A DNA stretch of 64,000 nt from an uncultured Actinomycetota bacterium. Its GTDB lineage: Bacteria > Actinomycetota > Actinomycetes > Actinomycetales > Microbacteriaceae. Below, piece after piece: positions 1-23,032 of the stretch (the stretch's first letter is position 1; every line of letters starts with the position of its first letter). The translations under genes and the position numbers were made by a program. The stretch spans positions 51-64,050 of the forward strand of contig CAWCWD010000062.1 in NCBI GenBank assembly GCA_963799015.1. Direction: 5' to 3'. The notes under the pieces were generated by a model. That model did not search any database and was not told where the DNA came from. It was given only the letters and a program-made list of their open reading frames with translations.

Positions 1-354
1 CGGATGCCGCGTGAGACCGTCGCGGTCGTCGGCGCCGAGCAGCTGCTGCTGTCGAAGGCCGTGCGGCGCGTGGCATCCGTCGTCGGCCGTCGCGTGGTCG
101 TGGTGCCGTGGCCGGTGTGGGCGCAGTACGCGCTCGCGCAGGTGACCGAGTGGACCATGAAGGTGCCGCTCGTCGCGAAGGCCCAGGTGCGCATGCTCGC
201 CGAGGGCGTGACGGATGCCGCGCCGCCCGCGGCATCCGTGCCCGACGACCTGCTCCCCCGCCGCATGTTCACGGCCGAGCAGATCCGCAGCGCCCTGCCC
301 GAGCCCGGCGGGTTCGGATGGCGCGACCTGCGGGTCAGTGGCGGCTCCCGCTGA
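1..354 (+). CDS. 3' part of NAD(P)-dependent epimerase/NAD(P)H-binding protein (5' end outside window); near-identical copy of 13378-13722
   Basis: Translation matches the C-terminus of 12823..13722 almost residue for residue; about 8 nt differences over ~340 bp. Confidence 0.85.
   Translation, partial: RMPRETVAVVGAEQLLLSKAVRRVASVVGRRVVVVPWPVWAQYALAQVTEWTMKVPLVAKAQVRMLAEGVTDAAPPAASVPDDLLPRRMFTAEQIRSALPEPGGFGWRDLRVSGGSR
211..239. repeat. Perfect inverted repeat ACGGATGCCGCG-CCGCC-CGCGGCATCCGT, also at 1661-1689, 13588-13616 and 22995-23023
   Basis: 12-bp arms with a 5-nt loop, read directly at all four positions. Confidence 0.9.
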
Positions 355-456
355 GCGCTGACGCGAAGACCATCTGCGGTGATTTCACGATGAATGCCGA
401 TCCAAGGCGGATACGGGAGTACTATATTCAACAGATCGAATCTTTGGAGCCCTTTC

Positions 457-1032
457 ATGACCGCTGGCACTCTCGTACGATCGGCTCGCAAGAGTCGACG
501 GCTCACGCAGGCGAGCCTCGGGCGTCGCGCGCGCCTGACGCAGTCGCACCTCTCGCTCATCGAGGGAGACCGGCAGAACCCGTCATTCGACACCGTCGAG
601 CGGGCCCTGCGGGGCGCCGGTCACCGCCTGGTGGCCGTCCCCACGCTTCGAGACGACGCCGCCATCATCGCCTCCGACATACGAGCCGACCTGGCGTTCG
701 GGCGACCCGAGCGAGCACTTCGGCGGTTCATCCAGCTCAATGACAACCTGACGGCCGAGCACGGTGCCGTGCGGTTCGCGCTGGCGATCACCGAACCCGA
801 ATCGACGGGCTCCAAACAGTGGGACGCCGCGATCGCCGCACTCGTTGCGCATCACCTGGAGGCGGAGCAGCTGCCGGTTCCAGAGTGGGCGAGCCGACCG
901 TCACGCGTTCTCAAGCGTGCCTGGGTATTCGGAGTCGGCCCCTACACATTGGCGCCCGAGCTCGATCGCGTCCCCGCGGCGTTCCGTGAACGGCGCGTTC
1001 TCATCGACGTCGACACCCTGCGCAGCGTATGA
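457..1032 (+). CDS. XRE-family HTH protein, putative antitoxin
   Basis: N-terminal HTH (LTQASLGRRARLTQSHLSLIEGDRQNPSFDTV); C-terminal 'WDAAIAALV...PEW...VPAAFRERRV' resembles actinobacterial antitoxins paired with nucleotidyltransferases. Confidence 0.7.
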   Translation: MTAGTLVRSARKSRRLTQASLGRRARLTQSHLSLIEGDRQNPSFDTVERALRGAGHRLVAVPTLRDDAAIIASDIRADLAFGRPERALRRFIQLNDNLTAEHGAVRFALAITEPESTGSKQWDAAIAALVAHHLEAEQLPVPEWASRPSRVLKRAWVFGVGPYTLAPELDRVPAAFRERRVLIDVDTLRSV

Positions 1033-1093
1033 CCGCGGAAAGTCGCCGCGGCGCGCCCGATTGTGTTGCGCCCTCGCGCGCTAGGTTGGTGCA

Positions 1094-1642
1094 ATGCAGC
1101 CCGGTGAGGTCGGAATCGAGATCACGCCGATCCTGGCGGCCCCCTCGCTCGAACCGGAGTTCGCCGCTCAGCTCGACGCGCTTCTGCGCCGCACCTGCAA
1201 GATCGCCCGCGCGCTGACCGGCGCCGAGCTGGCGGCCGTCAAGCTCTGGGTCGGCGAGGACTCGTCGCAGGCACGCAAGTACTTCAGCATGAGCGAGAAA
1301 TACGCAGCGTTCCGCGACTTCCGAGTCGACCCGAAGGGCGACGGCCTGCACGGGATGAGGATCCCACCCGGCGAGGTCATCCGCCTGACCGAAGCCGAGG
1401 TGTTGTCGCATCCGCTCTACCAGGGCTTCGGCCCGTTCGCTGACGCCCACCCGCCGATGCGGGGATGGCTGGCCACGAGTGTCTGCGGCGACGACGGTCG
1501 AATCTACGGTCTGCTGCAACTGAGCGATAAGAGCGGTGGGCGCGACTTCGACGAATCCGACGAGGCGAACATCCACGAACTCGCAGCTCTGATCGGTGAG
1601 ACGCTCGACGCCCTTCGACTGGCCGCCCAGCGGCCGGCTTAG
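1094..1642 (+). CDS. Stand-alone GAF domain protein
   Basis: 'GFGPFADAHPPMRGWLA...IYGLLQLSDKSGGRDFDESDE' is a DosS-like GAF signature. Confidence 0.8.
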   Translation: MQPGEVGIEITPILAAPSLEPEFAAQLDALLRRTCKIARALTGAELAAVKLWVGEDSSQARKYFSMSEKYAAFRDFRVDPKGDGLHGMRIPPGEVIRLTEAEVLSHPLYQGFGPFADAHPPMRGWLATSVCGDDGRIYGLLQLSDKSGGRDFDESDEANIHELAALIGETLDALRLAAQRPA

Positions 1643-1656
1643 CTGATTGGGGTGCT

Positions 1657-1723
1657 CGTGACGGATGCCGCGCCGCCCGCGGCATCCGTGCCCGACGACC
1701 TTCGCCCACGGCACATGTTCACG
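1657..1723 (+). repeat. Intergenic remnant of epimerase 3' region (equivalent to 207-273)
   Basis: CGTGACGGATGCCGCG...GTGCCCGACGACCTTCGCCCACGGCACATGTTCACG encodes VTDAAPPAASVPDDLRPRHMFT. Confidence 0.9.
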
Positions 1724-1752
1724 CGGATTCACGGTCTACCCCCGAGCGGGCG

Positions 1753-1776
1753 AACGATATATCGTTGATATATCGT
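1753..1776. promoter_or_regulatory. Putative PadR operator, AACGATATATCGTT followed by a second GATATATCG
   Basis: Perfect AT-rich palindrome plus tandem copy directly upstream of the PadR gene. Confidence 0.65.
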
Positions 1777-1813
1777 CGAGACCCGGGCGAGCGCCCGGTT
1801 CAGGGAGGACATC

Positions 1814-2384
1814 ATGAGCGGTTCGTACAGGGGCGACGGCTTCACCGGTCCCTCGGGCGGGTGGGGGCAAGGCAGCCCCCCGACAGGGACTGTGGGAGGC
1901 CCTGGATCAACTTCGCGGCATGTTCGAGCAGAAGGTCGCGCCGCGCATGGGCCGCGGCGACGTCCGCGCGGCGGTGCTCGCGCTCCTCGCCGAGCAGCCG
2001 ATGCATGGCTACCAGATCATCAGCGAGATCGCCGAGCGCAGCGGCGGCGCATGGAAGCCGAGCGCGGGCTCGGTGTATCCGACGCTGCAGCTGCTCGCCG
2101 ACGAGGGGCTCATCAGCGCAGAGGAGGCGGACGGCCGCAAGACCTACTCGCTGACGGAAGCGGGGCGGGCCGAGGCCGAGGCATCCGCTGATCGTCCCGC
2201 GCCGTGGCAGACCCCGAGCGCGCGCGACTCCGGCACGGTCGGGGCGCTCCCGAAGGCCGGCATCGAGCTCGCACAGGCGGCGGCGCAGGTCGGGCGCACG
2301 GGCACTCCCGAGCAGGTCAAGCAGGCGGTCGACGTGCTCGACGACGCGCGTCGTCGTCTGTACTCGATCCTCGCTCAGGACTGA
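1814..2384 (+). CDS. PadR-family transcriptional regulator (apparent frameshift near 1890)
   Basis: RGDVRAAVLALLAEQPMHGYQII...PSAGSVYPTL; RBS GGAGGA before ATG 1814. Confidence 0.88.
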
Positions 2385-2389
2385 CCTCG

Positions 2390-4161
2390 GTGCCCTCGGC
2401 ACGTCGGGGTCCAGGAGACTCGACGCCCGATGTCGGCAACACGCGCGCCCGCTACCGGCGGATCCTGCGGTTCGCCGCGCGACACATCGTCCAGACCTGG
2501 TGGTTCGAGCTCGTCCTGCCTCGCATCGGCCTGGCGAAGGTCGCGGCGCGCGGGCGAGCAGCGCGGCTGACTCGCATCGCCCAGCGCTTCCACGTGCTCG
2601 CGGTCGACCTCGGCGGCCTCATGATCAAGGTCGGCCAATACCTGTCGTCGCGACTCGACGTGCTGCCGCCCGAGATCACGAACGAGCTCGCTGGGCTCCA
2701 AGACGAAGTGCCGCCCGTGCCGTTCGACGCGATCCGACGCCTCGCCGAGGCCGAGCTGGGCCTTCCGCTCGAGCGCGCGTACGCGTGGTTCGACCCGACA
2801 CCGCTGGCCGCGGCATCCCTCGGTCAAGCGCACCGCGCCCGGCTCTCGCCGATCGACGCCGCCGACACGGGGCTCGACGAGGCCGTCGTCAAGGTGCAGC
2901 GACCGGGCATCGAGACGATCGTCGACGTCGACCTGGCGGCGCTGCGCCGCGTCGCCGGATGGCTCAGCCGCGTGACGTTCGTCTCGAGCCGCGTGGACCT
3001 CCCCTCGCTCGTCGAGGAGTTCGCCGTCACGAGCCTCCAGGAGATCGACTACCTGCAGGAAGCGCGCAACGCCGAGCGGTTCGCCGCGAGCTTCGCCGGC
3101 GACCCGCGGGTCGCCGCGCCCGAAGTCGTCTGGGAGCGCACGACGCGCCGCGTGCTGACGCTCGCCGACGTGACGGCGATCAAGATCAACGACCGCGAGT
3201 CCCTGGTGGCGGCGGGCATCGACCCGAAGGCCGTCGCGAAGCAGTTCGCGACCGTCATGTTCGACCAGCTCTTCCGCGACGGCTTCTTCCACGCCGACCC
3301 GCACCCCGGCAACATCTTCGTCACGCCGGTCGACCAGGTGACGGATGCCGCGTCGCCGGCCTCGAGGGTGACGGATGCCGCGTCGCCGGCCGCGTCCCCG
3401 CCTGGGAGCTCACCTTCATCGACTTCGGCATGATGGGCGAGGTGCCCGACGGACTGCGCCGCGGCCTGCAGCAGCTCATCCTCGCGGTCGCCGCGCGTGA
3501 CGGCAAGCGCCTGGTCGACAGCATCCGCGGTGTCGGCATCCTGCTGCCGTCGGCCGACACGGCGGAGCTCGAGCGAGCGATGTCCGAGCTGTTCGCGCGC
3601 TTCGGAGGCATGGGCCTCGCCGAGGTACGGCAGGTCGACGAGCGCGAGCTGCGCAGCTTCGCGATCGAGTTCGGCGAGGTGATGCGGGCGCTGCCGTTCC
3701 AACTGCCCGAGAACTTCCTGCTCATCATCCGGGCGATGTCGCTGACCTCGGGCATGTGCAGCTCGCTCGACCCCGACTTCAACATGTGGGACGCCGTCGA
3801 GCCCTACGCCGCGCAACTCCTGCGCGACGAGCGCGGCAACATCGTGCAGGCGTTCGGGCAGGAGGCGCTGTCCGTCGCGGGCACGGTCGCGCGGCTGCCG
3901 CAGCGCCTCGATGCGCTCGCGGACCGCATCGAGGAGGGGCGCCTCGTCGCGAACTCGCCGCGGCTCGAGCAGCGGATGGCGAGGCTCGAGCGCACGACCC
4001 AGCGGATCATCTCGGCGGTCCTGTTCGTCGGCCTGTTCATCGGCGGAATCCTGCTTCGCGTCGACGAGCCGGTGTGGGGCGTCACGCTGATCGCGGTGTC
4101 GGTGATCCCGCTCCTGCACGCCCTGTTCGCCGGGGTGTTCCGCCGGCGCGGGCGGGGGTGA
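2390..4161 (+). CDS. AarF/ABC1/UbiB-family atypical kinase (apparent frameshift near 3395)
   Basis: IKVGQ, AAASLGQAH, VKVQRP and HADPHPGN in one frame; IDFGMMG and two C-terminal TM helices in the next. Confidence 0.88.
3338..3392 (+). repeat. Tandem repeat, period 30 bp (GTGACGGATGCCGCGTCGCCGGCC x2)
   Basis: Read directly; encodes VTDAASPA twice. Confidence 0.85.
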
Positions 4162-4357
4162 TCGGAGCCGACACCGGCGACGTCGAGTCTCGGATGCTGC
4201 CGGTTTCACCGCGAACCTTCACGGGCGGTGGATGTCGCCTGCCAGGAGTGTCGAGCCGGATGCCTCGGCCAGGCGACTTCTCCTCCACAGCGGGCCGTCG
4301 GGCGAACTTCTCCACAGGGAATTTCCTGATCAGGGGCGATTTTCATGTGCGACCGGA

Positions 4358-4379
4358 TGTCAGTGGGTGGGTGCAGGAT
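4358..4379 (+). promoter_or_regulatory. RecA-NDp/PafBC-type DNA-damage promoter, probably leaderless
   Basis: TGTCAGTG-N8-CAGGAT versus consensus TGTCRgtg-N8-TAnnnT, 6 nt before ATG 4386. Confidence 0.55.
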
Positions 4380-4385
4380 CGAAGC

Positions 4386-5819
4386 ATGGAACAGCCCCCA
4401 TCGCCGCAGCCAGCGCCGTCGCCCCTGCGCGCGCTGCACGCGCTCGCCGCGCTCGAGCGCGATATCGCGGCGCTGCGCGAGGCGTGGGCGGGCTCGATGC
4501 CGGCGTGGGGCGCTGTCGGTGGGGCCGCGCAGGTCGAAGTGGAACAGATGAGCGACCCCGGGCTCATGCAGGTCACCGATGCGCTCGCGCAAGTCCGGCG
4601 CGACATCGACGCCGTCCTTGCCAGGGTCGCCGCCGAGGTGACGAAGCGATCCGGGCCGGAGTTCGGCGATATCGGATTGGCGAAGGCGCAGGGATTCCAC
4701 AACCCGGCGCGACTCATCGCCGCGTCCACCGGGGCATCGCGCGCCGACGCGCTGAGGCTGATCACCGTCGGCACCGTCACCGCGCAACGCCAGACCTTCA
4801 GCGGCGAGCGACTCCCCGCGCGGCATCCGCACGTCGCAGCTGCCTTGGAGGCTGCGAAGATCGGCATCGAGGCGGCATCCGCGATCACCTCGATGCTCGA
4901 CCGGGCGTCGGCGCGGGCCGAGGCGAGCAGGGTCGACGTCGTCGAAGCAGCGCTCGTCGAACTGGCAGCGCAGGTGCCGCTCGAAACGCTCATTCGCGGA
5001 GTTCGCGAGGCGGAGGCACGGCTCGACCCCGACGGAGTCGAGCCCCGCGAAGACCTGCTCCGCATGGAGCGCTCGCTGACGATGCGCGAAGACGGCCGCG
5101 GCATGGTGCACCTGCACGCCCGCCTCGACCCCGAGAGCGCCGCCCCGGTGAAGGCGGCGATCGAGGCGCTCGTGAGCGACGTGCTGCGCCGACGCGAGCC
5201 CGCCGACGGCGATCGCACCCCTGTCGCGGATGACCGACGGTCGATCCCGCAGATCCAGGCCGACGCGCTCGCCGCGCTCGCCCGCCACACGCTCGGCTGC
5301 GCCCAGACCCTCGCACCGCTCGCGAAGACCACGGTCGTCCTCCGCGTCGACCTCGACACGCTCGTCAGCGGACTCGGGCACGCGCGCATCGACGGTCTCG
5401 ACCAACCCATCTCCGCCGCCACGGCCCGCCGCATGGCGGCCGACGCCGAACTCGTCCCCGCCGTCCTCGGCGGGGACAGCATCCCGCTCGACCTGGGAAG
5501 GGCCGCCCGGCTGTTCACCAGAGCGCAACGCCTCGCGCTCGGCGAGCGCGACGGCGGCTGCGCTGCGTGTGGTCAGAACATCGCCTACGTCGAAGCCCAC
5601 CACATCGCCTGGTGGGAACGCGATACGGGCCCGACCGATCTCTCGAACGGGGTCATGCTCTGCAGCTTCTGCCACCACATGATCCACCGCGAGGGGTGGA
5701 AGATACACCCGAGCCCGAACGAAGTGTGGTTCATCCCACCACCGCACATCGACCCGGCACAGGTTCCGCGACTCGGCGGCCGGGCGCGATTCGAGCTGCG
5801 CGAAGACCGGGCGGCGTGA
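4386..5819 (+). CDS. DUF222 (13E12 repeat family) HNH endonuclease
   Basis: RLFTRAQRLALGERDGGCAACG...EAHHIAWW...GPTDLSNGVMLCSFCHHMIH; DUF222-type 'RSIPQIQADAL'. Confidence 0.92.
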   Translation: MEQPPSPQPAPSPLRALHALAALERDIAALREAWAGSMPAWGAVGGAAQVEVEQMSDPGLMQVTDALAQVRRDIDAVLARVAAEVTKRSGPEFGDIGLAKAQGFHNPARLIAASTGASRADALRLITVGTVTAQRQTFSGERLPARHPHVAAALEAAKIGIEAASAITSMLDRASARAEASRVDVVEAALVELAAQVPLETLIRGVREAEARLDPDGVEPREDLLRMERSLTMREDGRGMVHLHARLDPESAAPVKAAIEALVSDVLRRREPADGDRTPVADDRRSIPQIQADALAALARHTLGCAQTLAPLAKTTVVLRVDLDTLVSGLGHARIDGLDQPISAATARRMAADAELVPAVLGGDSIPLDLGRAARLFTRAQRLALGERDGGCAACGQNIAYVEAHHIAWWERDTGPTDLSNGVMLCSFCHHMIHREGWKIHPSPNEVWFIPPPHIDPAQVPRLGGRARFELREDRAA

Positions 5820-5928
5820 CACGACTCGGCTCAGTCGACCCGGTGCGCGCTGCGCCGAGCGCGCAGTGAGCGCTCCACCCTGCCCGACGGCCGTCGAACG
5901 GATCGGCACGATGTCGGCGTCTCCTCGT

Positions 5929-6351
5929 TCACTCGCGCTCGAACACGATGGCCGCGGGGAACCGCTTGAGCACCGGCCGGAACGGCGCCTTCGCGAGCCG
6001 CTCCGCCTCCGCACCGTCGACGATCCGCGGATGCACGAGCTCGACATCGCGCCCCCTCCACCGGAGCGATGCGCCACCCGCCGCCACGACGTTGCGTGCC
6101 CAGTTGGTCGTTGCGCCCCACGGCAGGCCGATCATCACGATGGACGCGTCCGTCGTCGGCACCACCGCGATCGGTGTCTCGTAGGCGGTGCCGCTCCGGC
6201 GTCCGCGATGGCGGATGAGCGCCCAGAGCGGCACCCAGCGGCGGCCCGCCAGGGCGCGCGCGACCGGCGCGGTCGCGTTCACGAGCCGGCGGGGCGGCCC
6301 GCCGGCGGCGCGCGGTTCGGGGGGTCGGGACTGATGGGAGGTCTCGTTCAT
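5929..6351 (-). CDS. Deazaflavin (F420)-dependent nitroreductase-family protein
   Basis: HRGRRSGTAYETPI...LPWGATTNWARNVVAAG motif. Confidence 0.82.
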   Translation of the reverse strand: MNETSHQSRPPEPRAAGGPPRRLVNATAPVARALAGRRWVPLWALIRHRGRRSGTAYETPIAVVPTTDASIVMIGLPWGATTNWARNVVAAGGASLRWRGRDVELVHPRIVDGAEAERLAKAPFRPVLKRFPAAIVFERE

Positions 6352-6359
6352 GCAGGGAG

Positions 6360-6438
6360 AACGGATGAGCCGGGGCGGATGTGACATCCGCGACAGCGAC
6401 ATCCGTGCTTGCGTCACATTCGCCGCGGGTGGATCGTC
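6360..6438. promoter_or_regulatory. Back-to-back ECF41-type promoters
   Basis: Minus strand TGTCACA(6386-6380)-N16-CGTT-N8-ATG; plus strand GTCACA(6413-6418)-N16-CGTC-N8-ATG. Confidence 0.75.
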
Positions 6439-6446
6439 TTCCTGTC

Positions 6447-7322
6447 ATGACCGATTTCTCCGACCTGTGGACCGCGCACCGACACGTCGTCCGCGACGTC
6501 GCCTACCGGGTGCTCGGATCCGTCGCCGAGGCCGAGGATGTCACCCAGGAGACCTACCTCCGGCTGCTCGCCCGCGGCGATGAGCCCGACGCGGAGCCGC
6601 TCGACGAGCCGCGCGCGTGGCTGGTCACGGTCGCGTCCCGGCTCGCGATCGACCGGTTGCGCGCGCACGAGCACTCCCGTCGCGCCTACGTCGGGCCCTG
6701 GCTGCCGGAACCGATCGTCACCGACGAGCGGACGCTTCCCGAGGACCGCGTCACCCTCGACGACTCGGTGCGGATGGCGCTGCTCGTCGTGCTCGAACAG
6801 CTCACGCCCGCGGAACGCACGGCGTTCCTCCTCCACGACGTGTTCGACCTCGGCTTCGACCGCATCGCCGACGTCCTCGGCGTGAGCCCGGCGAGCGCGC
6901 GGCAGTCCGCGTCACGCGCGCGGAAGCGGATCGCCGCGCAGGGCGAAGCCCGGTTCTCCGTCGATCCCGCCGCCGCCCGCCGACTGTCGGAGCGATTCGC
7001 CGCTGCCGCGTCCGACGGCGACCTCGCCGGGCTGGTCGCGGTGCTCGCGACGGATGCCACGGGCCACTTCGACTCCGGCGGCATCTTCCCTGACGCGCCG
7101 ACCGAGGTGGTCGTCGGCGCCGAGACGGTCGCCCGGCAGCTCCTCGCCGGGGTCGGCGGGCGGGGCCTCGACTTCGAGGTCGCGGAGGTGAACGCCGAAC
7201 CGGGGATCGTCGTCCGCCGCCGGGGGCGGGTCGTCTCCGTGCTCGCGCTCGAGTTCGCCGACGACCGGATCTCGGTCATCCACGGCATCGGGAATCCGAA
7301 GAAGCTCGCACACGTGCGGTGA
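6447..7322 (+). CDS. sigJ: ECF41/SigJ-family sigma factor with SnoaL-like C-terminal extension
   Basis: YVGPWLPEP and NPKKL (NPDKL-like) motifs; AEAEDVTQE region 2. Confidence 0.9.
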   Translation: MTDFSDLWTAHRHVVRDVAYRVLGSVAEAEDVTQETYLRLLARGDEPDAEPLDEPRAWLVTVASRLAIDRLRAHEHSRRAYVGPWLPEPIVTDERTLPEDRVTLDDSVRMALLVVLEQLTPAERTAFLLHDVFDLGFDRIADVLGVSPASARQSASRARKRIAAQGEARFSVDPAAARRLSERFAAAASDGDLAGLVAVLATDATGHFDSGGIFPDAPTEVVVGAETVARQLLAGVGGRGLDFEVAEVNAEPGIVVRRRGRVVSVLALEFADDRISVIHGIGNPKKLAHVR

Positions 7323-7338
7323 GTGCTTCGGGCTGTCA

Positions 7339-7368
7339 GTGCCCGACGACCTTCGGCCGCGGCGCATG
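7339..7368 (+). repeat. Remnant of epimerase 3' region (VPDDLRPRRM)
   Basis: GTGCCCGACGACCTTCGGCCGCGGCGCATG aligns with 238-267 and 1688-1717. Confidence 0.75.
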
Positions 7369-7595
7369 GAGCGGTGAGCATCGGGTCGCGCCGTGCTCCG
7401 TCGACCCCTGTAGTGGGGCGATCCAGTTCGGCATGGGCGCGCACATGCGGCGTAGTGTCGCGAGTGGGGGCACCTGCTCCCGCCCCGCGATCCGGATCCC
7501 TGGCCTCAGCGAGGGGCGACGGCATGATCACGATGTCTCGTGTCCGTGCCGGGCGCGATCCGAGCTGCGTCCCGCGCGACGCCGAGGGGCCTGTC

Positions 7596-8802: not shown

Positions 8803-8817
8803 GGGATGCCACGGAGC

Positions 8818-8834
8818 GGCGCGACCTGCGGATC
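8818..8834 (+). repeat. Remnant of the extreme 3' end of the epimerase (RDLRI)
   Basis: GGCGCGACCTGCGGATC is 16/17 identical to 320-336 and to 13697-13713. Confidence 0.55.
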
Positions 8835-8840
8835 TGGGAG

Positions 8841-13722: not shown

Positions 13723-13728
13723 AGCCGG

Positions 13729-14373: not shown

Positions 14374-14471
14374 CCCGTCCACTCCGCTCTTACGCATCCG
14401 TACGCGTTCGACCATATCCACCGGCACGTCCACCGCGACATCCGTCGGCGTCAACGGTGGTAGCCGGCGCC

Positions 14472-14823: not shown

Positions 14824-14863
14824 GTCCCAATTGTGCGCGCTGCACGTGCAGAAGGCGCGGGCA

Positions 14864-15253
14864 TCACGTCACGGCGAACACCGGCACGACCTCGTCGCGC
14901 TCCCCCGGCCCGCTGGGCACGTACTTCACGCGCACGCGTGCGTTGAGCAGGTCGGCGTCGGGGTCGGCGGAGAGCTCTGCCCACCACCAGGGCCCTTCAT
15001 CGAGCTGCACGATGCCGACGACGGTCCGGGTGGGCCCGTCGGCATCGCGGCCGTGCACCACCGACCACGAAACCACCTGTCCGAAGCCCGAAGCCGGCAC
15101 GCGCTCGTAGCGATCGGGGTCGAGCGAGGCATCCGCTCGCGGGCTGAGGATCTCGCCGGTCGTCGTGTTGCGCACGAGCTGGAACTCGCCGGCGCGGGTG
15201 CCGTCGAAGAACGCGGCGGATGCGGCATCCCGCCGCACTGGGAAGAGAGGCAT
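14864..15253 (-). CDS. DUF35/OB-fold acyl-CoA-binding partner of thiolase-like enzymes
   Basis: ASGFGQVVSWSVVH...VGIVQLDEGP; adjacent to thiolase-fold gene. Confidence 0.8.
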   Translation of the reverse strand: MPLFPVRRDAASAAFFDGTRAGEFQLVRNTTTGEILSPRADASLDPDRYERVPASGFGQVVSWSVVHGRDADGPTRTVVGIVQLDEGPWWWAELSADPDADLLNARVRVKYVPSGPGERDEVVPVFAVT

Positions 15254-15262
15254 GTCGTGCTC

Positions 15263-16459
15263 CTAGACCGTTCCGAGGATGAGCGTGGAGTGGTGGTCGA
15301 GCACGCCGCCGTTGCCCGAGACGAGCACCACGATCGTGGCGCTCGACCTGCCGCTCGCCGCCCTGGCCGCGCGCCTGGATGACGCCCTCCGACAGCGGCG
15401 TCATGCCCCACATGTAGTACGACGACAGCTGCCCGCCGCCGGTGTTGACCTTCAGCGATCCGTCCGGCCCGAGCACGCCGGGCTCCGACGACGAACGCAC
15501 CGCCCTCTCCCTTCTCGCAGAACCCGTAGTCCTCGAGCGTGACCAGCACGGTGAAGGTGTAGCAGTCGTACAGCTCGACCACGTCGATGTCGGCGAGCTG
15601 ATGTCCGCCATCCGCAGCGCCGCAGGTCCCGCCATGGCCGCGCCCGAGACCAGTCCGAAGTCGTCGTTGCGCTCGAACGTGTCGCCCGGGTGCGCCTGCG
15701 CCCACCCGTAGACGCCGACCGCCGGCTGGGCGAGGGATGCCGCGCGCTCGGCGCTCGTGACGATGACCGCGACGCCGCCGTTCGAGACGAGGCAGCAGTC
15801 GAGAGGTGGAACGGCTCCGCGACCCAGCGCGACGCGTGGTAGTCCTCCATGCGTGAGCGGAGTCGCGGAACTGGGCGAGCGGGTTACGCACCGCCCAGTC
15901 GCGCTGCGCAACGGCGATCGCGCCGAGCTGGTCGCTCGTCGTGCCGTACTTCTCCATGTGCCGCCGCGCCGCGAGCGCATAGAGGGTGTTCGCCGAGTAC
16001 AGCCGAGCTCGATGCGTTCAGCCCCGTGCCATCCGCTCGGCATCGACGCCGTCTCGCGGTAGGCGGCACCGGCGCCCTTGTCGGCCTTCAGCGGTCGTCG
16101 GCGAACACGCACGCGATGGTGTCGGCCATCCCGGCCTGCACGGCCATCGCCGCGTACTGCACCATCTGCGCGGCCGTCGATCCGTACCCCTGCATCTGCG
16201 TGAGCAGCTTCAGGTTCGTGAGGCCGAGCTCGCCCTGCAGGCCTAATCCGACCGACGTGTTGATACCGCCGGAAACCAGCAGCCCGTCGATGTCGCCGAG
16301 CGCCAGTCCTGCATCGGATGCCGCGAGCGTGACCGCCTCGGCGGCGAACTGCCCCGCGGTCGTGCCGTAGACCTTGCCGAGCTCGGTGATGCCGAGGCCG
16401 GCGATGGCCGCCTTCGGTCTGCCATTCGTGCCGTTCGAGGCGTTCGTACCGTTCGCCAT
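15263..16459 (-). CDS. Thiolase-family (SCPx/Ltp2-like) protein, several apparent frameshifts
   Basis: AAIAGLG, DCCLVSNGG, ELYDCYT and NTGGGQLS distributed over adjacent frames. Confidence 0.82.
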
Positions 16460-16461
16460 GC

Positions 16462-17304
16462 TCACTTGCCCTCCCAGCGCGGTGCGCGCTTCTCGGCGAA
16501 GGCGAGCATGCCCTCCTGCGCGTCGGCGCTGCGCATGAGGCGCTCGCCCTCCACGCCGGTGCGCTCCCAGTCGGATGCCTCGGCGACGATGTCGCCGTCG
16601 GTGATGCCCCGCGCGATCCGCTTGCTCACCTGCACGGCGAGCGGCGCGTTCTCGCAGATCGTCGTGGCGAGCGCGAGCGCCTCGTCGATCAGGCCCTCGA
16701 GCGGCACGACACGGTTCACGAGCCCGAGCTCGTGCGCTCGCTGCGCGGTGATCGGCTGCCCGGTGAGGATCGCCTCCATGGCGACCTTCTCGGGGATCTG
16801 CCGGGGCAGGCGGAAGGTGCCGCCGGCTCCGGCGAAGATGCCGCGCTTCACCTCGGGCAGTCCGAACGTCGCCGTGTCGGCGGCGACGGCGAGGTCGCTC
16901 GCGAGCACGATCTCGGTGCCACCGCCGAGCGCGAAGCCGTTCACGGCGGCGATCGTTGGCTTGGAGATGAAGTGGCGCACGTAGCCGGCGAAGCCCCAGC
17001 GAGCGAGGCGCTCGTCGCCGGTGCCGTTGAGGCGCCCGGCCGCGGCCTCCTTGAGGTCGGCGCCCGCACAGAACGCCTTGTCGCCGGCTCCGGTGATGAT
17101 CACCACCCACACGGAGGAGTCCGCCTCGGCCGCGTCGAGCGCCTCGCCGACCCCGATGGAGAGGTCGAGCGAGACGGCGTTGCGCGCCTCGGGGCGGTTG
17201 AGGGTGACGATCATCACCTGGTCTCGTCGTTCGACGAGCACGGTGCCGTTGCCGAAGGTCTCGACCTGGGCTGCTTCCGTCATCTCGTCAGTCTGCATGG
17301 TCAC
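16462..17304 (-). CDS. Enoyl-CoA hydratase/crotonase
   Basis: AFCAGADLK, NGFALGGGTE, FGLPEVKRG. Confidence 0.93.
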   Translation of the reverse strand: MTMQTDEMTEAAQVETFGNGTVLVERRDQVMIVTLNRPEARNAVSLDLSIGVGEALDAAEADSSVWVVIITGAGDKAFCAGADLKEAAAGRLNGTGDERLARWGFAGYVRHFISKPTIAAVNGFALGGGTEIVLASDLAVAADTATFGLPEVKRGIFAGAGGTFRLPRQIPEKVAMEAILTGQPITAQRAHELGLVNRVVPLEGLIDEALALATTICENAPLAVQVSKRIARGITDGDIVAEASDWERTGVEGERLMRSADAQEGMLAFAEKRAPRWEGK

Positions 17305-17340
17305 GAGCTGGTTCCTTTCCTATGCGTTCTGCTGGGGCTC

Positions 17341-19779
17341 TTATGCGTTCTGCATGGGAGCGGGCGCCGGCGCGGGAAGCACCGCGGGATGCACCTGCAG
17401 CACCCCGTCCTCGAGCAGTTCATCGATGTAGTCGTCGTCGTAGCCGAGCAGCTCGCGCACGATCTCGCGGGTGTGCTCGGCCTGGCGGGGCGCCGGCTCG
17501 AGCCGGGGCTGCGCCACGTGCTCGAATCGCGCCTCGGCCAGGTTCGTCATGAGCGGCGCCGGTCGCAGCGGGTGCACGAGTTCGCCGAAGACGCCGCGCG
17601 CGGCGAAGTGGCCATCAGCGGCGAAGTCGCGCGGGCGCATCATCTGCCCGGCGGGAACGCCCGCGGCCTGCAACTCCTCCGCCGCCACCGGCGCCGGGCG
17701 CCCCGACGTCCACTCGACGACAGAGGCCCGCAGCTCGTCTACGTTCGCGAGTCGGCCCTCGGCCGCGGCGAAGCGCGCGTCGGCGAGCCAGTCGGCGCGG
17801 CCGATCGCGCGGGCGAGCGCGCGGAACTGGTCGTCGCCGACCGGGTCCACGACGACCCACTCGTCGTCGCCGGCGCCCGGGAAGATCCCGCGCGGCGCGT
17901 CCACGCCTCGGATCGACCCCTCGATCGTCACCGAGCCCGGGCGCACCGATTCGAGCGCGAGCCGGTCGGCCATGGCTGAGAAGATCGCGTCGACCTGCGC
18001 GGTCGAGACCCGACCGCCGCGGCCGGTGATCGAGCGGCGCAGCAGCAGCGCGGTGACCGCGATGGCGTTGAGCCGGCCCACGACATGGTCGGGGTAGATC
18101 GTGATCGCGTCGCTGAAGCTGCCGTCGATCTCGGGGTAGCTCCAGAGCAAGCTCATGCCGGCGCTCGCCCGCACGAGCGGGCCGTACCCGAGGCGCGTGC
18201 TCCACGGACCTGTGTTTCCGAATGCGCTCGACTCCGAGAGCACGATGCGGGGGTTGATCTCCTGCAGTGTCTCCCAGTCGAAGCCGAGACCCGCGAGCGT
18301 ACCGGGCTTGAAGTTCGTGAGTACGACGTCGGAGTCGGCCACGAGCTGGCGGAAGATCGCTCTGCCCTCGTCGCTCTTCAGGTTCAGGCCGAGGCTGCGC
18401 TTGTTGCGCTGCCCGGCTGCGAACCCGTCGGCGATCTCCGACCCGTCGAGCGATCCGCGCGCGCCATCGGGGAACTCGCGGCTCTCGACCTTGATGACCT
18501 CCGCGCCGTAATCGCCGAACAGGCGGCCCAGCTCTGCGCCGACGACGATGACGCCGAGGTCGAGCACTCGCAGCCCCGAGAACGGCAGCGGCCCCGACGG
18601 CGACCACGTGGGCCGCGGTCCGTCGAGGGGCGCAGGCAGCGGCGCCGCAGCATCCGCAACTGCACCGATCGGAGCGCGGATGCCGCTGCGCTCGCCGTCG
18701 AGTTCGAAGATGCCGGTCGGCACCGTCGCCGTCACGCCGTCGACCTCGAGCGAGGTGAACGCGCCGGCCTCGATGAACGCCTCGGTGCGGAGCACCTCAT
18801 CGGCGTGGGCGAGACCCGCCGTCGGCACGCCGAACGACTGGCCCTGCTCCGTGGCCTCGTCGCGGCTGAGGTTCGCCAGCATTGCCCCGATCAGCGGGTA
18901 GAGCGTCTTGGCGGCACCGAATCGCACGGGCGTGCTGTTGTACTTCGGGTCGGCGAACTCCCCGGGCTCGCCGAGCCAGTGGAACATGCCCTGCCACTGG
19001 CGGGCGCTCAGCACGCAGATGCGCACCCAGCCGTCGCGCACGGGGAACATCGGGTACAGATGGCGCGAGTCGGGGCGGCCCTGAGGCTGGTCCATGAGCG
19101 ACTCGCCGGCACGGGCGCTGCCGCCGATGCCGAGCGCCGGGTCGAGGATCTGCACGAGCGCGTCGTTGACCGAGAAGTCGATCGACTCGCCGTGGCCCTG
19201 GCCGAGCGCCTGAACGTATCCGAGGATGACCGCCCACGCCGCCTGGGCCGCCGCCGCCTCGTAGGCGAGGAACGACGGCGGCAGCAGCGGCTCGGTCTCC
19301 TCGGGCAGGCCCGAGCGCGAGAGCACCGTGCTGAGCGCGAAGTGCACGTCGGGGGTGCCGAGCCAGTCGGATCGCGGCCCGTGCACGCCGAAGTCGGTCA
19401 GGCTCGCCGCGAGGATCCGCGGGTTGGCGGCCCGCGCGGCAGCCCGGTCGAGGCCGCGCTCGCGCTGGCTCGCCTCGTCGCCGTCGACGAGGAGGATGTC
19501 GGCGGTGACGAGCAGGTCGTGCACGCGCCGTGCTCCCTCGTCGGTCGCGGCATCCGCTGCGACGCTCGTCTTGTTCGCATTGCGGATCGCGAACGTGAGG
19601 CTGGCGTCGCCGTGCAGCGCGCCCTCACCGCGAGCGGTCGAGCCGCCCGACGATTCGAGGCGGAGGACGTCTGCGCCGAGGTCGGCGAGGATTCGGCCGA
19701 CCGACTGCAACGGGCCGTCGACGGCGTCGACGACGCGGACGCCGCGGAGGGGCAGGTCATGGGTTGTGGTGGTGGACAT
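17341..19779 (-). CDS. CaiB/BaiF family III CoA-transferase, tandem-domain form
   Basis: Two repeats: LADLGADVLRLE and FGDYGAEVIKVE...NKRSLGLNLK. Confidence 0.9.
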   Translation of the reverse strand: MSTTTTHDLPLRGVRVVDAVDGPLQSVGRILADLGADVLRLESSGGSTARGEGALHGDASLTFAIRNANKTSVAADAATDEGARRVHDLLVTADILLVDGDEASQRERGLDRAAARAANPRILAASLTDFGVHGPRSDWLGTPDVHFALSTVLSRSGLPEETEPLLPPSFLAYEAAAAQAAWAVILGYVQALGQGHGESIDFSVNDALVQILDPALGIGGSARAGESLMDQPQGRPDSRHLYPMFPVRDGWVRICVLSARQWQGMFHWLGEPGEFADPKYNSTPVRFGAAKTLYPLIGAMLANLSRDEATEQGQSFGVPTAGLAHADEVLRTEAFIEAGAFTSLEVDGVTATVPTGIFELDGERSGIRAPIGAVADAAAPLPAPLDGPRPTWSPSGPLPFSGLRVLDLGVIVVGAELGRLFGDYGAEVIKVESREFPDGARGSLDGSEIADGFAAGQRNKRSLGLNLKSDEGRAIFRQLVADSDVVLTNFKPGTLAGLGFDWETLQEINPRIVLSESSAFGNTGPWSTRLGYGPLVRASAGMSLLWSYPEIDGSFSDAITIYPDHVVGRLNAIAVTALLLRRSITGRGGRVSTAQVDAIFSAMADRLALESVRPGSVTIEGSIRGVDAPRGIFPGAGDDEWVVVDPVGDDQFRALARAIGRADWLADARFAAAEGRLANVDELRASVVEWTSGRPAPVAAEELQAAGVPAGQMMRPRDFAADGHFAARGVFGELVHPLRPAPLMTNLAEARFEHVAQPRLEPAPRQAEHTREIVRELLGYDDDYIDELLEDGVLQVHPAVLPAPAPAPMQNA

Positions 19780-19861
19780 GGCGGGCACTCCTTCGTACCG
19801 GTGGTTCGGTGTGGGTGGGCTTCTGAGAACGCTGATTGCGAGAACTTTGGCCGGCGGCCTG

Positions 19862-21259
19862 CTACTCGGCGATCTCGACAAGCGAGCGGTCCTTGGTGCG
19901 CACGCCCATGCGAATGAGGAGCGCCGCGACGAGCAGGAGGGTGATCATCGCGATGCCGGCCGGGACGGCGCCGGCGCCGAGCAGGATCGGGAGGATCACG
20001 AACGGTGCGACCGCGCCGCCCAGATGCCCGATGCCGTCGCAGATCGCGGCAGCCGTCCCGCGCTGCTTGGTCGGGAAGACTTCCGCCGTGTAGGTGTACG
20101 CCGGGGTTGCCATGAAGGTGATGCCGGCGGTGGCGAAGAGGGCGCCCGCCGTGGCCGCCCACTCGCCCCATCCCGAGATGATCAGGGCAACGCCGAGCGC
20201 GAACGCGACCGTGCCGATGATGATGAGCGTGCGCCGTTCGATCCGCTCGATCACGGCCACGACGACGAAGCCGATGAGCAGCGGGGCGGCGCGGGTGAGC
20301 ACGGTGATGAAGAGCGCGTTCGAGGTTGCGACGCCGACCCCTTCGAGCAGCAGCGGGAGGTAGCTCGCGAACGCGTACATCGCCACATAGAAGATGAACC
20401 AGAAGCCGAGCACGATCAGAAGGCGGCTGCGCAGCGGCGGGCGCAGCAGCGCACGCAGCGGACTCTCGCGATCGGCGGTCTCCTCGGCGGGCGTCTCCTC
20501 GACCTGAAGCAGCGCCTCTTCGTCCACCGGGACGCCCGCGTTGCGTTCCATCTTTCGGACGATCGCCGTCGCCTCGTCGACACGGCCGTTCGCGATGAGC
20601 CAACGAGGCGACTCCATGAGCGCCGTCTTGTTGATGAAGAACAGCATCAGCAGCACGAGCCCGCCGAAGGCGAGCAGTCCGCGCCAGCCGAGCTCGGGCC
20701 ACGCGGCCAGCACGGGCAGCGAGGCGAAGCCGACGATGAGGTTCAGGATGCCGCCGATGACGTAGAGGAACGACAGGTACTTTCCGCGCCGGTTCTTCGG
20801 GGCCATCTCGCCGATGTACGCCGAGCACAGCGCGAGCACCGCTCCCATGCCGCCGCCCGTGAGGAACCGGAAGAACGACAGTGACGCCATGTCCCACGAG
20901 AACGCGGTCAGGAATCCGCCGACGCCGAGCAGCGCGATCGTCAGGAAGAGCCCGACCTGGCGGCCGCGTCGGTCGGAGATGTGCCCGAACACGTACGCGC
21001 CGACGGCGTAGCCGACGAGGTTTGCGGTGACGGGCCAGGCCAGGTCCGTGCCCGCAAGGCCGAGGTCCGCCATCATCGCCGGCAGCGTCACGGCGAAGAC
21101 GCCGATGTCGTAGTTCGCGAAGAAGAAGGCGAGCATGAGGGCGAGCCAGGCCCATCGATTGAGGCCGACCCGCGGCATCCGGTCGATCGTCTGCTCGAGG
21201 GTGAGCCGGGCTGGAGGTACTGCGGCGTGGTGAAGATCCGTCGTTGAAGAAGACATCAT
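19862..21259 (-). CDS. MFS transporter (aromatic acid/carboxylate:H+ symporter-like)
   Basis: GHISDRRGR, ESPRWL, EVFPTKQRG; multiple TM helices. Confidence 0.9.
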   Translation of the reverse strand: MMSSSTTDLHHAAVPPARLTLEQTIDRMPRVGLNRWAWLALMLAFFFANYDIGVFAVTLPAMMADLGLAGTDLAWPVTANLVGYAVGAYVFGHISDRRGRQVGLFLTIALLGVGGFLTAFSWDMASLSFFRFLTGGGMGAVLALCSAYIGEMAPKNRRGKYLSFLYVIGGILNLIVGFASLPVLAAWPELGWRGLLAFGGLVLLMLFFINKTALMESPRWLIANGRVDEATAIVRKMERNAGVPVDEEALLQVEETPAEETADRESPLRALLRPPLRSRLLIVLGFWFIFYVAMYAFASYLPLLLEGVGVATSNALFITVLTRAAPLLIGFVVVAVIERIERRTLIIIGTVAFALGVALIISGWGEWAATAGALFATAGITFMATPAYTYTAEVFPTKQRGTAAAICDGIGHLGGAVAPFVILPILLGAGAVPAGIAMITLLLVAALLIRMGVRTKDRSLVEIAE

Positions 21260-21508
21260 CGTCCTTTGCGTCGAGCTGTCGGCCTCACCTGCGAAGCCGG
21301 TGGCGGGCGTCGGTGCCGCGCCTGAGTGGCCTCAACAGTAAGAACGGAGGTGGGTGCTCTGCGCAGCCGATTCGAGCGGATGCCGCGGGCCTCAGGCGAC
21401 CGTTGCACCGGACCGTACGTGCACGGTGCGGCGTGCAGGTTGCGCCCCGTGCGGGGGCCGCTTCTCGCTCTTGGACCGCGCGGGGGCGCGTCGGATAGGT
21501 TCGTCCTG

Positions 21509-22415
21509 ATGGAACTGTCCCAACTCCGGGCGTTCGTCGCGACGTCGCGCGAACGGAACATCGCGCGCGCCGCCGAGTCGTTGAACCTCACCCCGTCACC
21601 GGTCAGTCGCACCATCAAGGACCTCGAGAGCCAGCTCGGCGGCGACCTCTTCGTTCGCTCGTACCACGACCTGCAGCTGACCGAGCTCGGCGAGCGGATG
21701 CTGCCACCGGCGGTGCGCATCGTGACCCAGGCCGACGCGATGCTGCCGCCACGGCTGGGCCGCGAGAACCGACCCCGAGTCGGGTCGACGCCCTGGGCGC
21801 CCTACGCGCTTCCTCGACGACCTGAACCAGGTGGCCAACGAGGTGTTCGACGGAGCGGTCGACTTCGACTCCGACCTCTCATCAGCGCTGCTGAACTCGC
21901 TGCGGCACGGCGCACTCGACCTCGCGCTCGTGCACCTTCCAGTCGCCTCTCCCGAGATCGCGACGCGAGTGTTGGGTCGATACGACTTCCGGGCGATCGT
22001 CATGGCGAGGGATCCGCTCGCGCAGCAGGAATCGATCGCGCTCGCCGACATCCGCGAGTACTCGGTACTCACGATGCCGCGCATGATGCAGCCGCTGCCC
22101 ATGGCGGCCCTGCACGACCGCCTCTTGCAGAGCGGCGTTCGCGACCAGGTCGAGATCGACCTTCGGGACTTCCTGTCGATCCGCTCCCGGTTGCGTCAGC
22201 CGCGCACCGTCATGCTCGCGACGACGGCGACTGATTCACCGCTCGCTGCAACCGTGTATCCGGGCGAGGTGGCGCTGCTCCCGATCCGCGATCTCGACGT
22301 CGAGTTCCTTCTCGGCGTAGCCTGGCGCGAGCCGAACTTCGCGCACGGCGGTCGCATCGCCGAACTCGTTGAACGGCTGCATCCGCTGCCGGGCGAGCCG
22401 CCCGTCGTGGTCTAG
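21509..22415 (+). CDS. LysR-family regulator (apparent frameshift near 21800)
   Basis: LRAFVA...ARAAESLNLTPSPVSRTIKDLE...LF.R; divergent from the catabolic operon. Confidence 0.88.
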
Positions 22416-22585
22416 CAATCCGCGACCGCCGGCCCTTCCGCCGTTGCGGCTCCAGCCGCTATCGGCCCGGTCAGCCGCCGTGGCATGCGTGCCCGAGACG
22501 CAGATACGCAATGCGGGAAGCAGAGAGCGGTTGCGTATGTCATTCAATCCCGACGAGATGTGTCCAACTGCGCCTCGTTGCGGCG

Positions 22586-22732
22586 TCATCCGGCGTTCCC
22601 ACCGAGCATGTGCAACTCCGTCACCCGCACCTTCGAGCAACGCGCGCACTCAAAGTACGGTTCCGTGTCGGGTTCCCGGCGCACTACCCATTTGTGAATA
22701 CCGAGCCGGCACCGGAGAGGCTTACCTCGCAT
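22586..22732 (-). CDS. Small Cys/His protein (DUF1660-like), 48 aa
   Basis: MRGKPLRCRLGIHKW...YFECARCSK; RBS AAAGGGGG; lower-GC patch. Confidence 0.55.
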   Translation of the reverse strand: MRGKPLRCRLGIHKWVVRREPDTEPYFECARCSKVRVTELHMLGGNAG

Positions 22733-22928
22733 TTCGTATCCCCCTTTGGACACGGCACCAAAGATCTGGTGAGAACTACAGTCCAAGGGTTCCAGTTCAG
22801 GGGCAACCGGATCGGGCCATTTGGCCGGTTCGGACTCCACGGCGAATTCGGCGCTCTGCACTGGAGTCGACCGCGCCCCTCTCCGCGTTTGGTGTGTACA
22901 CGCCTCCAATTGGGCGAGGCGTGTCTGC

Positions 22929-23032
22929 ACCGAGTGGACGATGAAGGTGCCGCTCGTCGCGGAGGCCCAGGTGCGCATGCTCTCCGAGGGCGTGACGGAT
23001 GCCGCGCCGCCCGCGGCATCCGTTCCCGACGA
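22929..23032 (+). repeat. Intergenic remnant of epimerase 3' region (equivalent to 145-248)
   Basis: 104 bp with 4 substitutions; TEWTMKVPLVAEAQVRMLSEGVTDAAPPAASVPD. Confidence 0.92.

Follow-up and report, generated by a model that had tools for sequence, protein, structure and literature searches.

An epimerase-like gene and its fragments

The stretch of DNA analysed here, referred to below as the window, consists of the 64,000 nucleotides at positions 51-64050 of contig CAWCWD010000062.1 (C62), which derives from a soil bacterium of the genus Agromyces (Microbacteriaceae). The window holds part of a hypervariable array of accessory genes that is common to Agromyces species and reshuffled among them, and in which pieces of one epimerase-like gene, all in the same orientation, are interspersed with blocks of unrelated cargo genes. 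The host assembly comprises 4.27 Mb in 67 contigs, with a G+C content of 71% and a completeness of 64%; C62 itself is 118 kb long. Pieces of the gene were located by repeat finding and BLAST, and positions within the gene (gene positions) are numbered on its intact copy in the window, copy E (1-900). Sampled loci and sampled genomes carry codes of the form L0xx and G0xx, respectively; L040 is Agromyces sp. NPDC057865, and G071 is a complete genome in one contig.

Copy E (12823-13722, forward strand) encodes an intact epimerase-like protein of the short-chain dehydrogenase/reductase (SDR) type, 299 amino acid residues long and assigned to the Pfam families Epimerase and NAD_binding_10. Its orthologues are 84-97% identical within Agromyces, a high conservation at the DNA level, and 57-78% identical in the other loci returned, among them loci of other Microbacteriaceae and of Acidobacteria. 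The protein was found at an E-value <= 1e-30 in just 7 of 24 sampled congeners, which marks both the gene and its array as accessory. An earlier note on this DNA had listed six copies of the 3' end of the gene, five of which (A, B, C, E and F, all on the forward strand) held as BLAST or repeat matches. Copy A (1-354) covers gene positions 556-900 in the window and 506-900 on the contig, and has its own stop codon and a longer C-terminus. Remnant B (1657-1723; gene 762-828) is 94% identical to E (E-value 2e-20), and remnant F (22929-23032; gene 700-803) is 96% identical to it (E-value 2e-40), with a 3' edge at CCCGACGA; both contain the hairpin described below. Remnant C (7336-7368; gene 790-822) is 88% identical to B and agrees with the Agromyces neolithicus allele at 33 of 34 positions. 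The remaining item of the list, D (8818-8834, forward strand), is a single 17-nt match with an E-value of 0.006; about 0.3 such matches are expected by chance according to a hand estimate and, given its length and the lack of further support, D is treated as a chance match. The segment 45890-45937, 88% identical to gene positions 839-886, is either a candidate seventh piece or an unrelated terminator-like palindrome, and it is ambiguous because positions 45895-45933 form a perfect, G+C-rich palindrome of 39 nt (-30 kcal/mol) between converging genes. This palindrome resembles a weaker second inverted repeat in the epimerase tail (gene ~855-880).

Copies A (1-354) and E (13378-13722) share 98-99% identity, or 98% over 392 nt; up to gene position ~887 they differ by 5 mismatches (98.7% identical), and their ends diverge beyond this point. 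The pair is mosaic over the last 13 nt, as read from the alignment without a formal breakpoint test. The contig starts 50 nt to the left of the window, within copy A, and its first 63 nt are the same as E, with the first mismatch at contig position 64. This start is an assembly break at the repeat and, because the contig breaks inside A, this copy probably reached further in the 5' direction than the assembly does. The peptide variants PDDLLPRRM, PDDLRPRHM and PDDLRPRRM are encoded as described in the earlier note, and the LL and LR forms occur as alleles in other Agromyces species. The accompanying proposal that the tail copies stem from different lineages fits three other genomes (L087, L043 and G011), where a long tail piece falls apart from the resident gene; in the window, A and E are each other's nearest relatives. 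The tail phylogeny on which both statements rest is weakly resolved, with 1 of 24 branches starred.

A scan of 100 Agromyces genomes, in which at most ~5 candidates per genome were scored so that all counts are lower bounds, revealed epimerase hits in at least 52 genomes, many of them with several pieces on one contig; besides the host, about half of the 99 congeners sampled thus carry the gene or pieces of it. Wherever at least two pieces (E-value <= 1e-10) share a contig, all lie on the same strand, as read from the scan table. In a further sample of 20 other Agromyces loci of ~21 kb each, including several from named culture-collection or isolate strains and one from a complete chromosome, pieces of the epimerase gene were the only notable internal repeats in 13. 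Co-oriented pieces are spread over ~125 kb in the complete genome G071, and G078 contains at least ten pieces, with no full copy within the 60 kb examined. Misassembly, named in the earlier note as one of the outcomes that would undo its reading, is not the cause of the pattern, which recurs in these 13 loci and in a one-contig genome.

The ends of the pieces vary widely. In the genus scan, pieces that reach the stop codon (tail pieces) begin at gene positions 151-869, and those that contain the start codon (head pieces) end at gene positions 64-693. The 5' pieces, among them 1-393, 14-522 and 1-189, are found upstream of intact copies, and the 3' pieces downstream; among nearest-neighbour pieces, 5 of 7 5' pieces and 10 of 11 3' pieces lie on these respective sides (Fisher p 0.013, the related genomes not being independent). 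In the paired copies examined, homology begins at or just before the gene start and stops at or near the stop codon. Internally deleted copies of the gene are present in G011, G061 and L045.

Several pieces can be followed into longer counterparts in related genomes. In a colinear alignment of the window with L040, positions 7280-7326, 7336-7368, 7380-7466 and 7578 onward correspond to the end of a sigma factor gene, L040 epimerase positions 10781-10813, the spacer following the gene and the start of a serine hydrolase gene, respectively. Since L040 retains the intact series sigma factor-epimerase-hydrolase with which the window is colinear, C is the remnant of a full copy after two deletions. 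The reverse state is found further along the array: where the window has the intact copy E, before the Zincin block, L040 has a remnant (gene 212-267), just as L040 has a full copy where the window has C. This reciprocal loss implies an ancestor with at least two copies of the gene. As for B, L048 has the same end of the GAF block as the window followed by gene positions 731-782, a longer piece than B, and L043, G011 and G078 have a fuller tail (to gene ~894-896) located 23-26 nt before the same PadR cassette that follows B; judging from these counterparts, B is derived from longer pieces through internal deletions. The junction between F and the RibD_C cassette is common to the window, G011 (piece 761-794) and G078 (piece 779-808), and is one old inherited event, because three genomes have it; its left side has been eroded differently. 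The pieces are thus decaying spare copies of the gene and not attachment (att) sites. For the cargo beside a young 5' duplication in L036 no donor can be named, because it has no relatives among the sampled loci.

Gene blocks of the array and their distribution in Agromyces

The proposal of an insertion hotspot of variable cargo tied to one protein gene is borne out by the genus-wide hits and by the reordering of cassettes between species, and comparison of the surroundings of the gene across relatives, along the lines suggested in the earlier note, revealed both variable cargo and epimerase remnants. Blocks of the window recur elsewhere with ~70-97% identity, in a constant orientation relative to the epimerase gene and in varied order. 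The blocks reordered between species are PadR-ABC1, DUF222-HNH, sigma, GAF, HTH, hydrolase, Zincin, RibD_C-YCII and DLH; the order in L040, for example, is PadR-ABC1, sigma, epimerase, hydrolase, GAF, HNH, epimerase remnant, Zincin, RibD_C and DLH. Overall, the anchor gene is constant and the block order differs in ~20 Agromyces genomes, with one HNH cassette as the only mobility gene.

The gene modules named in the earlier note were correctly identified, as judged by Pfam. On the forward strand, copy A is followed by a gene for an HTH_31/Xre-type regulator (394-1032), whose block (~410-1033) recurs in L033, L034, L037, L043 and G011, and by a gene for a GAF-domain protein (1094-1642), whose block (~1036-1661) recurs in L032, L040, L043 and L048; in other genomes, these are two separate cassettes. 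Next to remnant B lies a 2.44-kb PadR and ABC1-kinase cassette (1724-4165, forward strand), found on one or the other side of the epimerase gene in at least 11 other arrays. Within its kinase gene, a 30-nt tandem duplication (3329-3402) carries the abundant motif discussed below (GGTGACGGATGCCGCGTCGCCGGCC) in each copy. The adjacent DUF222-HNH endonuclease cassette of the 13E12-repeat type (4257-5849, forward strand) recurs in L032, L040 and G071; it is the sole selfish-looking gene of the array, and has paralogues on contigs C28, C54 and C55 of the host. The following cassette (5917-7326) comprises, according to Pfam and NCBIfam, a deazaflavin-dependent nitroreductase-family gene (5929-6444, reverse strand) and a gene for an extracytoplasmic function (ECF) sigma factor with a SnoaL domain (6381-7322, forward strand), and recurs in L029, L032, L040, L045 and G078. 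Between remnant C and copy E, the window contains a beta-lactamase-fold serine hydrolase cassette (7578-8803, forward strand; also in L040, L045, G056 and G071), a ROK regulator gene (8841-10121, reverse strand) and a gene for a GH84 N-acetylglucosaminidase (10335-12695, forward strand), whose block recurs in G056 and G071.

Downstream of E, a reading frame for 364 amino acids on the reverse strand (13729-14823) joins a Zincin-like and a GNAT domain. Its Zincin part (14464-14844) is found in ~10 other contexts as a stand-alone cassette of ~375 nt, the size of its open reading frame (ORF; ~120 amino acids, ending in TAG), and the flanks of the block diverge within ~8 nt of the stop codon and ~20 nt of the start codon in these contexts. 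In the window, one extra T ~20 nt before the usual stop codon shifts the frame into the GNAT gene, so that the joint reading frame is either a real fusion or a sequencing error. The cargo that follows (14864-22415), consisting of a CoA-transferase/hydratase/thiolase-like operon, an MFS transporter gene and a LysR regulator gene, has no relative among the sampled loci. Element X (22530-22839, forward strand), 310 nt long, contains no clear gene and is 88% identical to a segment of G078, the central ~170 nt being nearly identical by eye; in G078, it is embedded in an epimerase copy, between positions 703 and 746 of the gene. The host genome contains a single copy of the element, which lacks an Rfam match and could represent either a gene for a small RNA or a small insertion. 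A block inside an epimerase copy was also found in L048, where the GAF block lies between gene positions 693 and 731.

Beyond remnant F, the forward strand carries RibD_C, YCII and dienelactone hydrolase (DLH) cassettes (23030-24826; RibD_C-YCII at 23030-24116, DLH at 24167-24826), which recur in L040, G071 and G078 and also, in a permuted order that places DLH ahead of RibD_C, in G011. The end of the DLH gene is duplicated on the same strand 3.4 kb downstream (28112-28260; 90.7% identity over 150 nt to 24683-24832), the duplicate consisting of the last 144 nt of the gene and a further 6 nt. Together with the DLH gene it brackets GntR-aminotransferase, EamA and B3_4 genes, which are lacking at the DLH position of other arrays, and the duplication is of the same insertion-duplication pattern as the epimerase pieces. 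Many further co-oriented partial duplications of other array genes are present in G078 and G056.

Block borders are sharp: the Zincin block amounts to its ORF and ~20 nt in ~10 contexts, and in seven or eight contexts the ends of the PadR-ABC1 block match within ~25 nt. Inspection by eye of all block borders in the window, and of those of the PadR-ABC1 and Zincin blocks elsewhere, revealed no common sequence, structure or inverted repeat, no motif-discovery program having been run. The sequence GCCCGACG, considered as a border signal, is present at a few borders and is uninformative there, because the genome contains ~1,900 copies of it.

Repeats are also frequent elsewhere in the host assembly, with 296 repeat pairs of >=88% identity between contigs and 77 within contigs (C18, C28, C8, C42 and others); the longest inter-contig repeat measures 13.7 kb, and a 5.5-kb pair lies 42 kb apart on C18. 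Such long repeats, together with the 64% completeness, may reflect either a strain mixture or genuine large duplications. Further arrays of the same kind might be represented by short-repeat clusters on C42 (3.3, 7.4 and 15.7 kb) and on C55.

The hairpin, the abundant genus motif and the search for recombinases

A 12-5-12 hairpin (13588-13616, forward strand) lies within the coding sequence of E, where it encodes TDAAPPAAS, and is formed by an inverted pair of the commonest 10/11-mer of the genome. As the earlier note had claimed, the hairpin ACGGATGCCGCG-N5-CGCGGCATCCGT is identical in four copies (A, B, E and F), and GT(G/T)CCCGACGA, at its 3' edge, occurs in five (the same four and C). Its folding energy is ~-26 kcal/mol (z -3.7). 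Among the orthologues compared, TDAAPPAAS and the hairpin are kept in Agromyces and absent from other genera. The component motif CGGATGCCGC(G), counted with its complement, is the most abundant 10-mer of the genome (1,344 and 1,318 copies, ~1 per 1.6 kb), ~50-fold above the expectation from base composition by a hand estimate. It shows no strand bias and occurs mostly inside genes and in all reading frames; in the window, examples are found at 2-11, 213-222, 13379-13388 and 13590-13599. The motif is enriched in every Agromyces locus examined and not in loci of other Microbacteriaceae. The abundant 11-mer resembles a signal of the uptake-sequence type, a likeness that is merely suggestive of DNA exchange, and the top 10 of 48 literature matches contained no relevant report on it.

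Genus-wide, ~10 pieces end at gene positions 795-812, at most ~17 nt 3' of the hairpin, and these ends are scattered rather than placed at one nucleotide. Deletions of 6-7 nt beside the hairpin were found in L028 and G071. The other ten motif-pair hairpins of the host genome show no association with local duplications. Around the hairpin, third-position identity amounts to 0.85-0.89 (mean 0.81), with similar values in another part of the gene; with conservation only mildly raised and matched elsewhere in the gene, the region was rejected as a conserved DNA site. Overall, the hairpin looks like a fragile or preferentially retained spot and not like a crossover or recombinase site. An element of the repetitive extragenic palindromic (REP)/RAYT type was likewise rejected, the motif being mostly genic, in all frames and without strand bias, unlike intergenic REPs, although no search for RAYT genes was made, as was a module of the Xer/dif type, since by eye a 12-5-12 hairpin inside a coding sequence is unlike dif sites.

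The statement in the earlier note that no integrase is visible in the window agrees with both the domain annotation and the profile scans. Pfam annotation of most predicted reading frames between 1 and ~51.5 kb yielded no integrase, transposase or reverse transcriptase (RT). Tyrosine recombinases (PF00589) were absent from the 118-kb contig and from the vicinity of the arrays of five relatives, the nearest being 123 kb away (G056), and no serine recombinase (PF00239) above the cut-off was present on the contig or beside the same five arrays. An ORF for 158 amino acids with a Cys/His-rich N-terminus (49261-49737, reverse strand) scores as a weak resolvase fold (21 bits, below the Pfam cut-off) and, read by eye, has ARDD where RVS with the catalytic serine is expected. 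Similar weak hits are found in G071, G011, G056 and G042, ~4-25 kb from the nearest epimerase piece (~4-36 kb if the window is included), and all these ORFs score 21-26 bits, at or below the cut-off. No gene of the IS26, ISCR or relaxase type was seen in the window. Two further candidates were set aside. A tRNA-Ala(GGC) called by ARAGORN at 48537-48611 was considered as an anchor; it is probably a false positive, having no Rfam tRNA match at the gathering threshold (Rfam gave no matches anywhere in the window), a sequence unlike a tRNA, and a 3' end that is not repeated on the contig. A diversity-generating retroelement, considered since a template-like 3'-end copy is found close to the gene, was rejected: the Pfam annotation shows no RT domain, and the four differences between F and E, read from their alignment as C>G, A>G, G>T and G>T, are not adenine-specific.

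Origin of the array and comparison with known systems

Insertion of DNA from other strains by homologous recombination anchored on the epimerase gene, followed by decay of the spare gene copy through deletion, is the origin we are inclined to favour, with somewhat better than even confidence; both homologous recombination as the joining step and inter-strain transfer as the source are inferred, the direct observations being the pieces with their common orientation and variable ends, their decay through deletion, the reciprocal loss, the reordering of blocks and the absence of a recombinase close by. The donor would be DNA of another strain, or a circle looped out of an array, with the epimerase gene as the sole shared homology. 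Because the neighbouring genes are strain-specific, such DNA would be expected to insert within the gene itself, by a RecA-type ends-in (Campbell-type) event, that is, a single or unequal crossover. Each event would add cargo and leave two direct copies, full or partial, in the order 1..b, cargo, a..900. Selection would retain at least one intact copy and, since one suffices, the spare would erode by deletions to any extent; the hairpin may promote nearby deletion end points or be preferentially kept. Repeated events would give a co-oriented series of units, each consisting of an epimerase piece and its own cargo, and the multiple copies could then act as portable homology for the duplication, deletion, permutation and exchange of the blocks between them. 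Tandem duplication probably contributes as well.

The direct copies, the confinement of homology to the gene, the differing cargo, the foreign allele lineages (in a weakly resolved tree) and the A/E mosaic fit insertion-duplication of this kind. It is further favoured by the genus-wide pattern specific to this gene, the duplication of whole copies and not of tails alone, the reciprocal decay, the erosion of pieces through deletion, the similar partial duplications of other array genes, and the lack of tyrosine or serine recombinases on the contig or next to the arrays of five relatives. Several points weigh against it. The tail tree has little resolution, and the assembly lacks the upstream half of copy A. 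The model does not account for the epimerase gene, and not any other conserved gene beside variable DNA, having become the repeat, and we know of no DNA-transfer route in Agromyces, transformation included. The ~10 pieces that end within ~17 nt 3' of the hairpin are more clustered than purely random decay predicts. Finally, the borders of the Zincin block in ~10 contexts and of the PadR-ABC1 block are strikingly sharp; we attribute this to very short spacers and selection, and a dedicated mechanism could produce it too.

Among the alternatives, a purely internal origin, by tandem duplication of segments ending in or near the gene and later loss of the redundant DNA with no input from other strains, is unlikely, if less so than those that follow. 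It would account for every copy being a direct repeat, for A and E being closest to each other, for the many partial duplications in G078 and G056, and for the orders RibD_C-YCII-DLH and DLH-RibD_C-YCII, which are circular permutations such as duplication and trimming give. However, within a genome the cargo behind different copies is dissimilar, the same blocks occur in different orders across species at 85-97% identity, and many pieces differ in allele lineage from the resident gene, as far as the weakly resolved tree indicates. Homology between copies halts at the gene borders and does not run into the flanks; with homology so bounded and cargo unrelated, plain tandem duplication fits less well than a donor and a recipient that share only the gene. 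The integron- or tRNA-island-like mechanism with a replacement tail, proposed in the earlier note, is considerably less probable and was rejected as the main mechanism. Here, a site-specific recombinase encoded in trans would act at the hairpin and the adjoining GTGCCCGACGA, and circular elements would bring the replacement tail, as in tRNA islands, SCC at rlmH and integrons. The recurrence of hairpin and core in four or five copies speaks for it, as do the exact end of F at CCCGACGA, the start of C at GTGCCCGACGA, the ~10 pieces ending at gene 795-812 and several remnants that are barely more than the hairpin (L028, G070). Yet these breaks are spread over 795-812 and do not share one nucleotide, tail starts range over most of the gene (151-869), and 5' pieces, which replacement tails do not predict, occur. 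In addition, C goes back to a full copy reduced by deletion, the F junction represents one event inherited by three genomes, no integrase or resolvase was found on the contig or beside the five other arrays, the ten other motif-pair hairpins lack local duplications, and synonymous conservation is only mildly raised.

An unrecognised, dedicated cassette-shuffling system that moves ORF-sized blocks through the epimerase sequence as a landing pad is quite improbable, though marginally less so than a trans-acting att recombinase. Its effector could be the DUF222-HNH endonuclease, the degenerate resolvase-like protein encoded at the edge of the array, or an enzyme with the 11-mer or the hairpins as its target. 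Such a system would explain the sharp block borders in many contexts, which are the strongest argument for it, and the two blocks inside epimerase copies (GAF and element X); the HNH cassette is present in several arrays, and the weak resolvase-fold ORF recurs near the arrays of the window and four relatives. On the other hand, no shared border sequence or structure is seen by eye, many arrays do not contain the HNH gene, the resolvase-like ORF has, as read by eye, no catalytic serine motif and may recur through plain synteny, and the 11-mer is scattered in genes in all frames and not at borders. We rate as equally improbable the related idea of an integrase-free cassette system proper to Agromyces, trans-acting or dependent on the motif or hairpin, perhaps with the 11-mer CGGATGCCGCG as uptake or recombination signal. 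The least credible explanation is an assembly artefact, in which false joins at shared sequence arose from a mixture of strains. It would be in keeping with the 64% completeness, the 67 contigs, the many inter-contig duplicates (>=88%, up to 13.7 kb) and the contig start inside A. However, B, C and F are flanked on both sides by unrelated sequence, which false joins do not give; the tail-PadR, F-RibD_C and GAF-tail junctions occur in other assemblies, and co-oriented pieces in a one-contig genome.

Long co-oriented arrays of gene blocks are thus maintained in Agromyces and rearranged from one species to the next in the absence of a nearby integrase. Should homologous recombination on a single conserved gene suffice, these arrays would provide a clear natural example of gene gain through insertion-duplication, the eroding pieces would be a fossil record of successive events, and the genus would offer a tractable system for asking how much change in gene content needs no mobile-element machinery. 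Several of the sampled assemblies are single-contig, and many hits are in named culture-collection strains. Looping out is predicted for the 13-kb unit between the two 98.7%-identical copies A and E. One may also ask whether DNA exchange within Agromyces is marked by the abundant 11-mer. To our knowledge, integrons are rare or absent in Actinobacteria, and an integrase-free cassette system, if real, would be a functional analogue of integrons in this group. A literature search on insertion-duplication islands gave only papers on integrative and conjugative elements (ICEs) and insertion sequences (IS).

Each of several known systems shares part of this picture. Integrons likewise form long one-orientation arrays of gene-sized blocks, in an order that varies by genome and with an inverted-repeat element between some blocks. 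Unlike them, the Agromyces array has no IntI or other tyrosine recombinase on the contig and no attC-like site seen by eye at block ends; its repeat is a coding-gene fragment of variable extent, its hairpin lies only inside epimerase pieces, and its genes are on both strands. In accretion of islands at gene 3' ends (tRNA and tmRNA islands, SCC at rlmH, ICEs at guaA), direct 3'-end repeats also separate the cargo and the gene stays intact. Those repeats, however, represent att cores whose extent is fixed, and each element brings its own integrase or ccr gene, whereas the Agromyces pieces have variable ends and include 5' pieces, and no recombinase was found. In complex class 1 integrons (with the ISCR1 3'-conserved segment), IS26 translocatable units and Streptomyces amplifiable units, a cargo circle recombines with a resident segment and leaves flanking direct partial duplications. 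The same kind of duplication flanks cargo here, but the conserved segment in Agromyces is an ordinary metabolic-type gene, accompanied in the window by no visible ISCR, IS26 or relaxase-type gene. Orphan arrays of Rhs and contact-dependent inhibition (CDI) genes also consist of a full gene followed by displaced 3' fragments and small cargo genes. Their fragments encode different toxin tips with matching immunity genes, in contrast to the Agromyces fragments, which are of the same sequence and have unrelated cargo.

In Neisseria, minimal mobile elements are cassettes of variable gene content that lie between conserved genes and are swapped by homologous recombination after DNA uptake (PMC3787668). 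The likeness is that recombinase-free, gene-sized cassettes vary among close relatives at a fixed anchor and that recombination in the conserved flanks is the proposed driver; the hyper-abundant short motif of the host genome also has its parallel in the Neisseria uptake sequence. The Agromyces array differs in having many blocks over >100 kb and an anchor gene that is multiplied and decays inside the array, which implies ends-in or unequal events and not clean double crossovers. By analogy, the array resembles integrons in its outcome, although it lacks those defining features of integrons and of att-site islands that were tested, and, in its mechanism, would stand closest to the minimal mobile elements of Neisseria, to duplicated 3'-conserved segments and to IS26-type units; it is unusual in the multiplication and erosion of its own anchor gene, on a scale of >100 kb and genus-wide.

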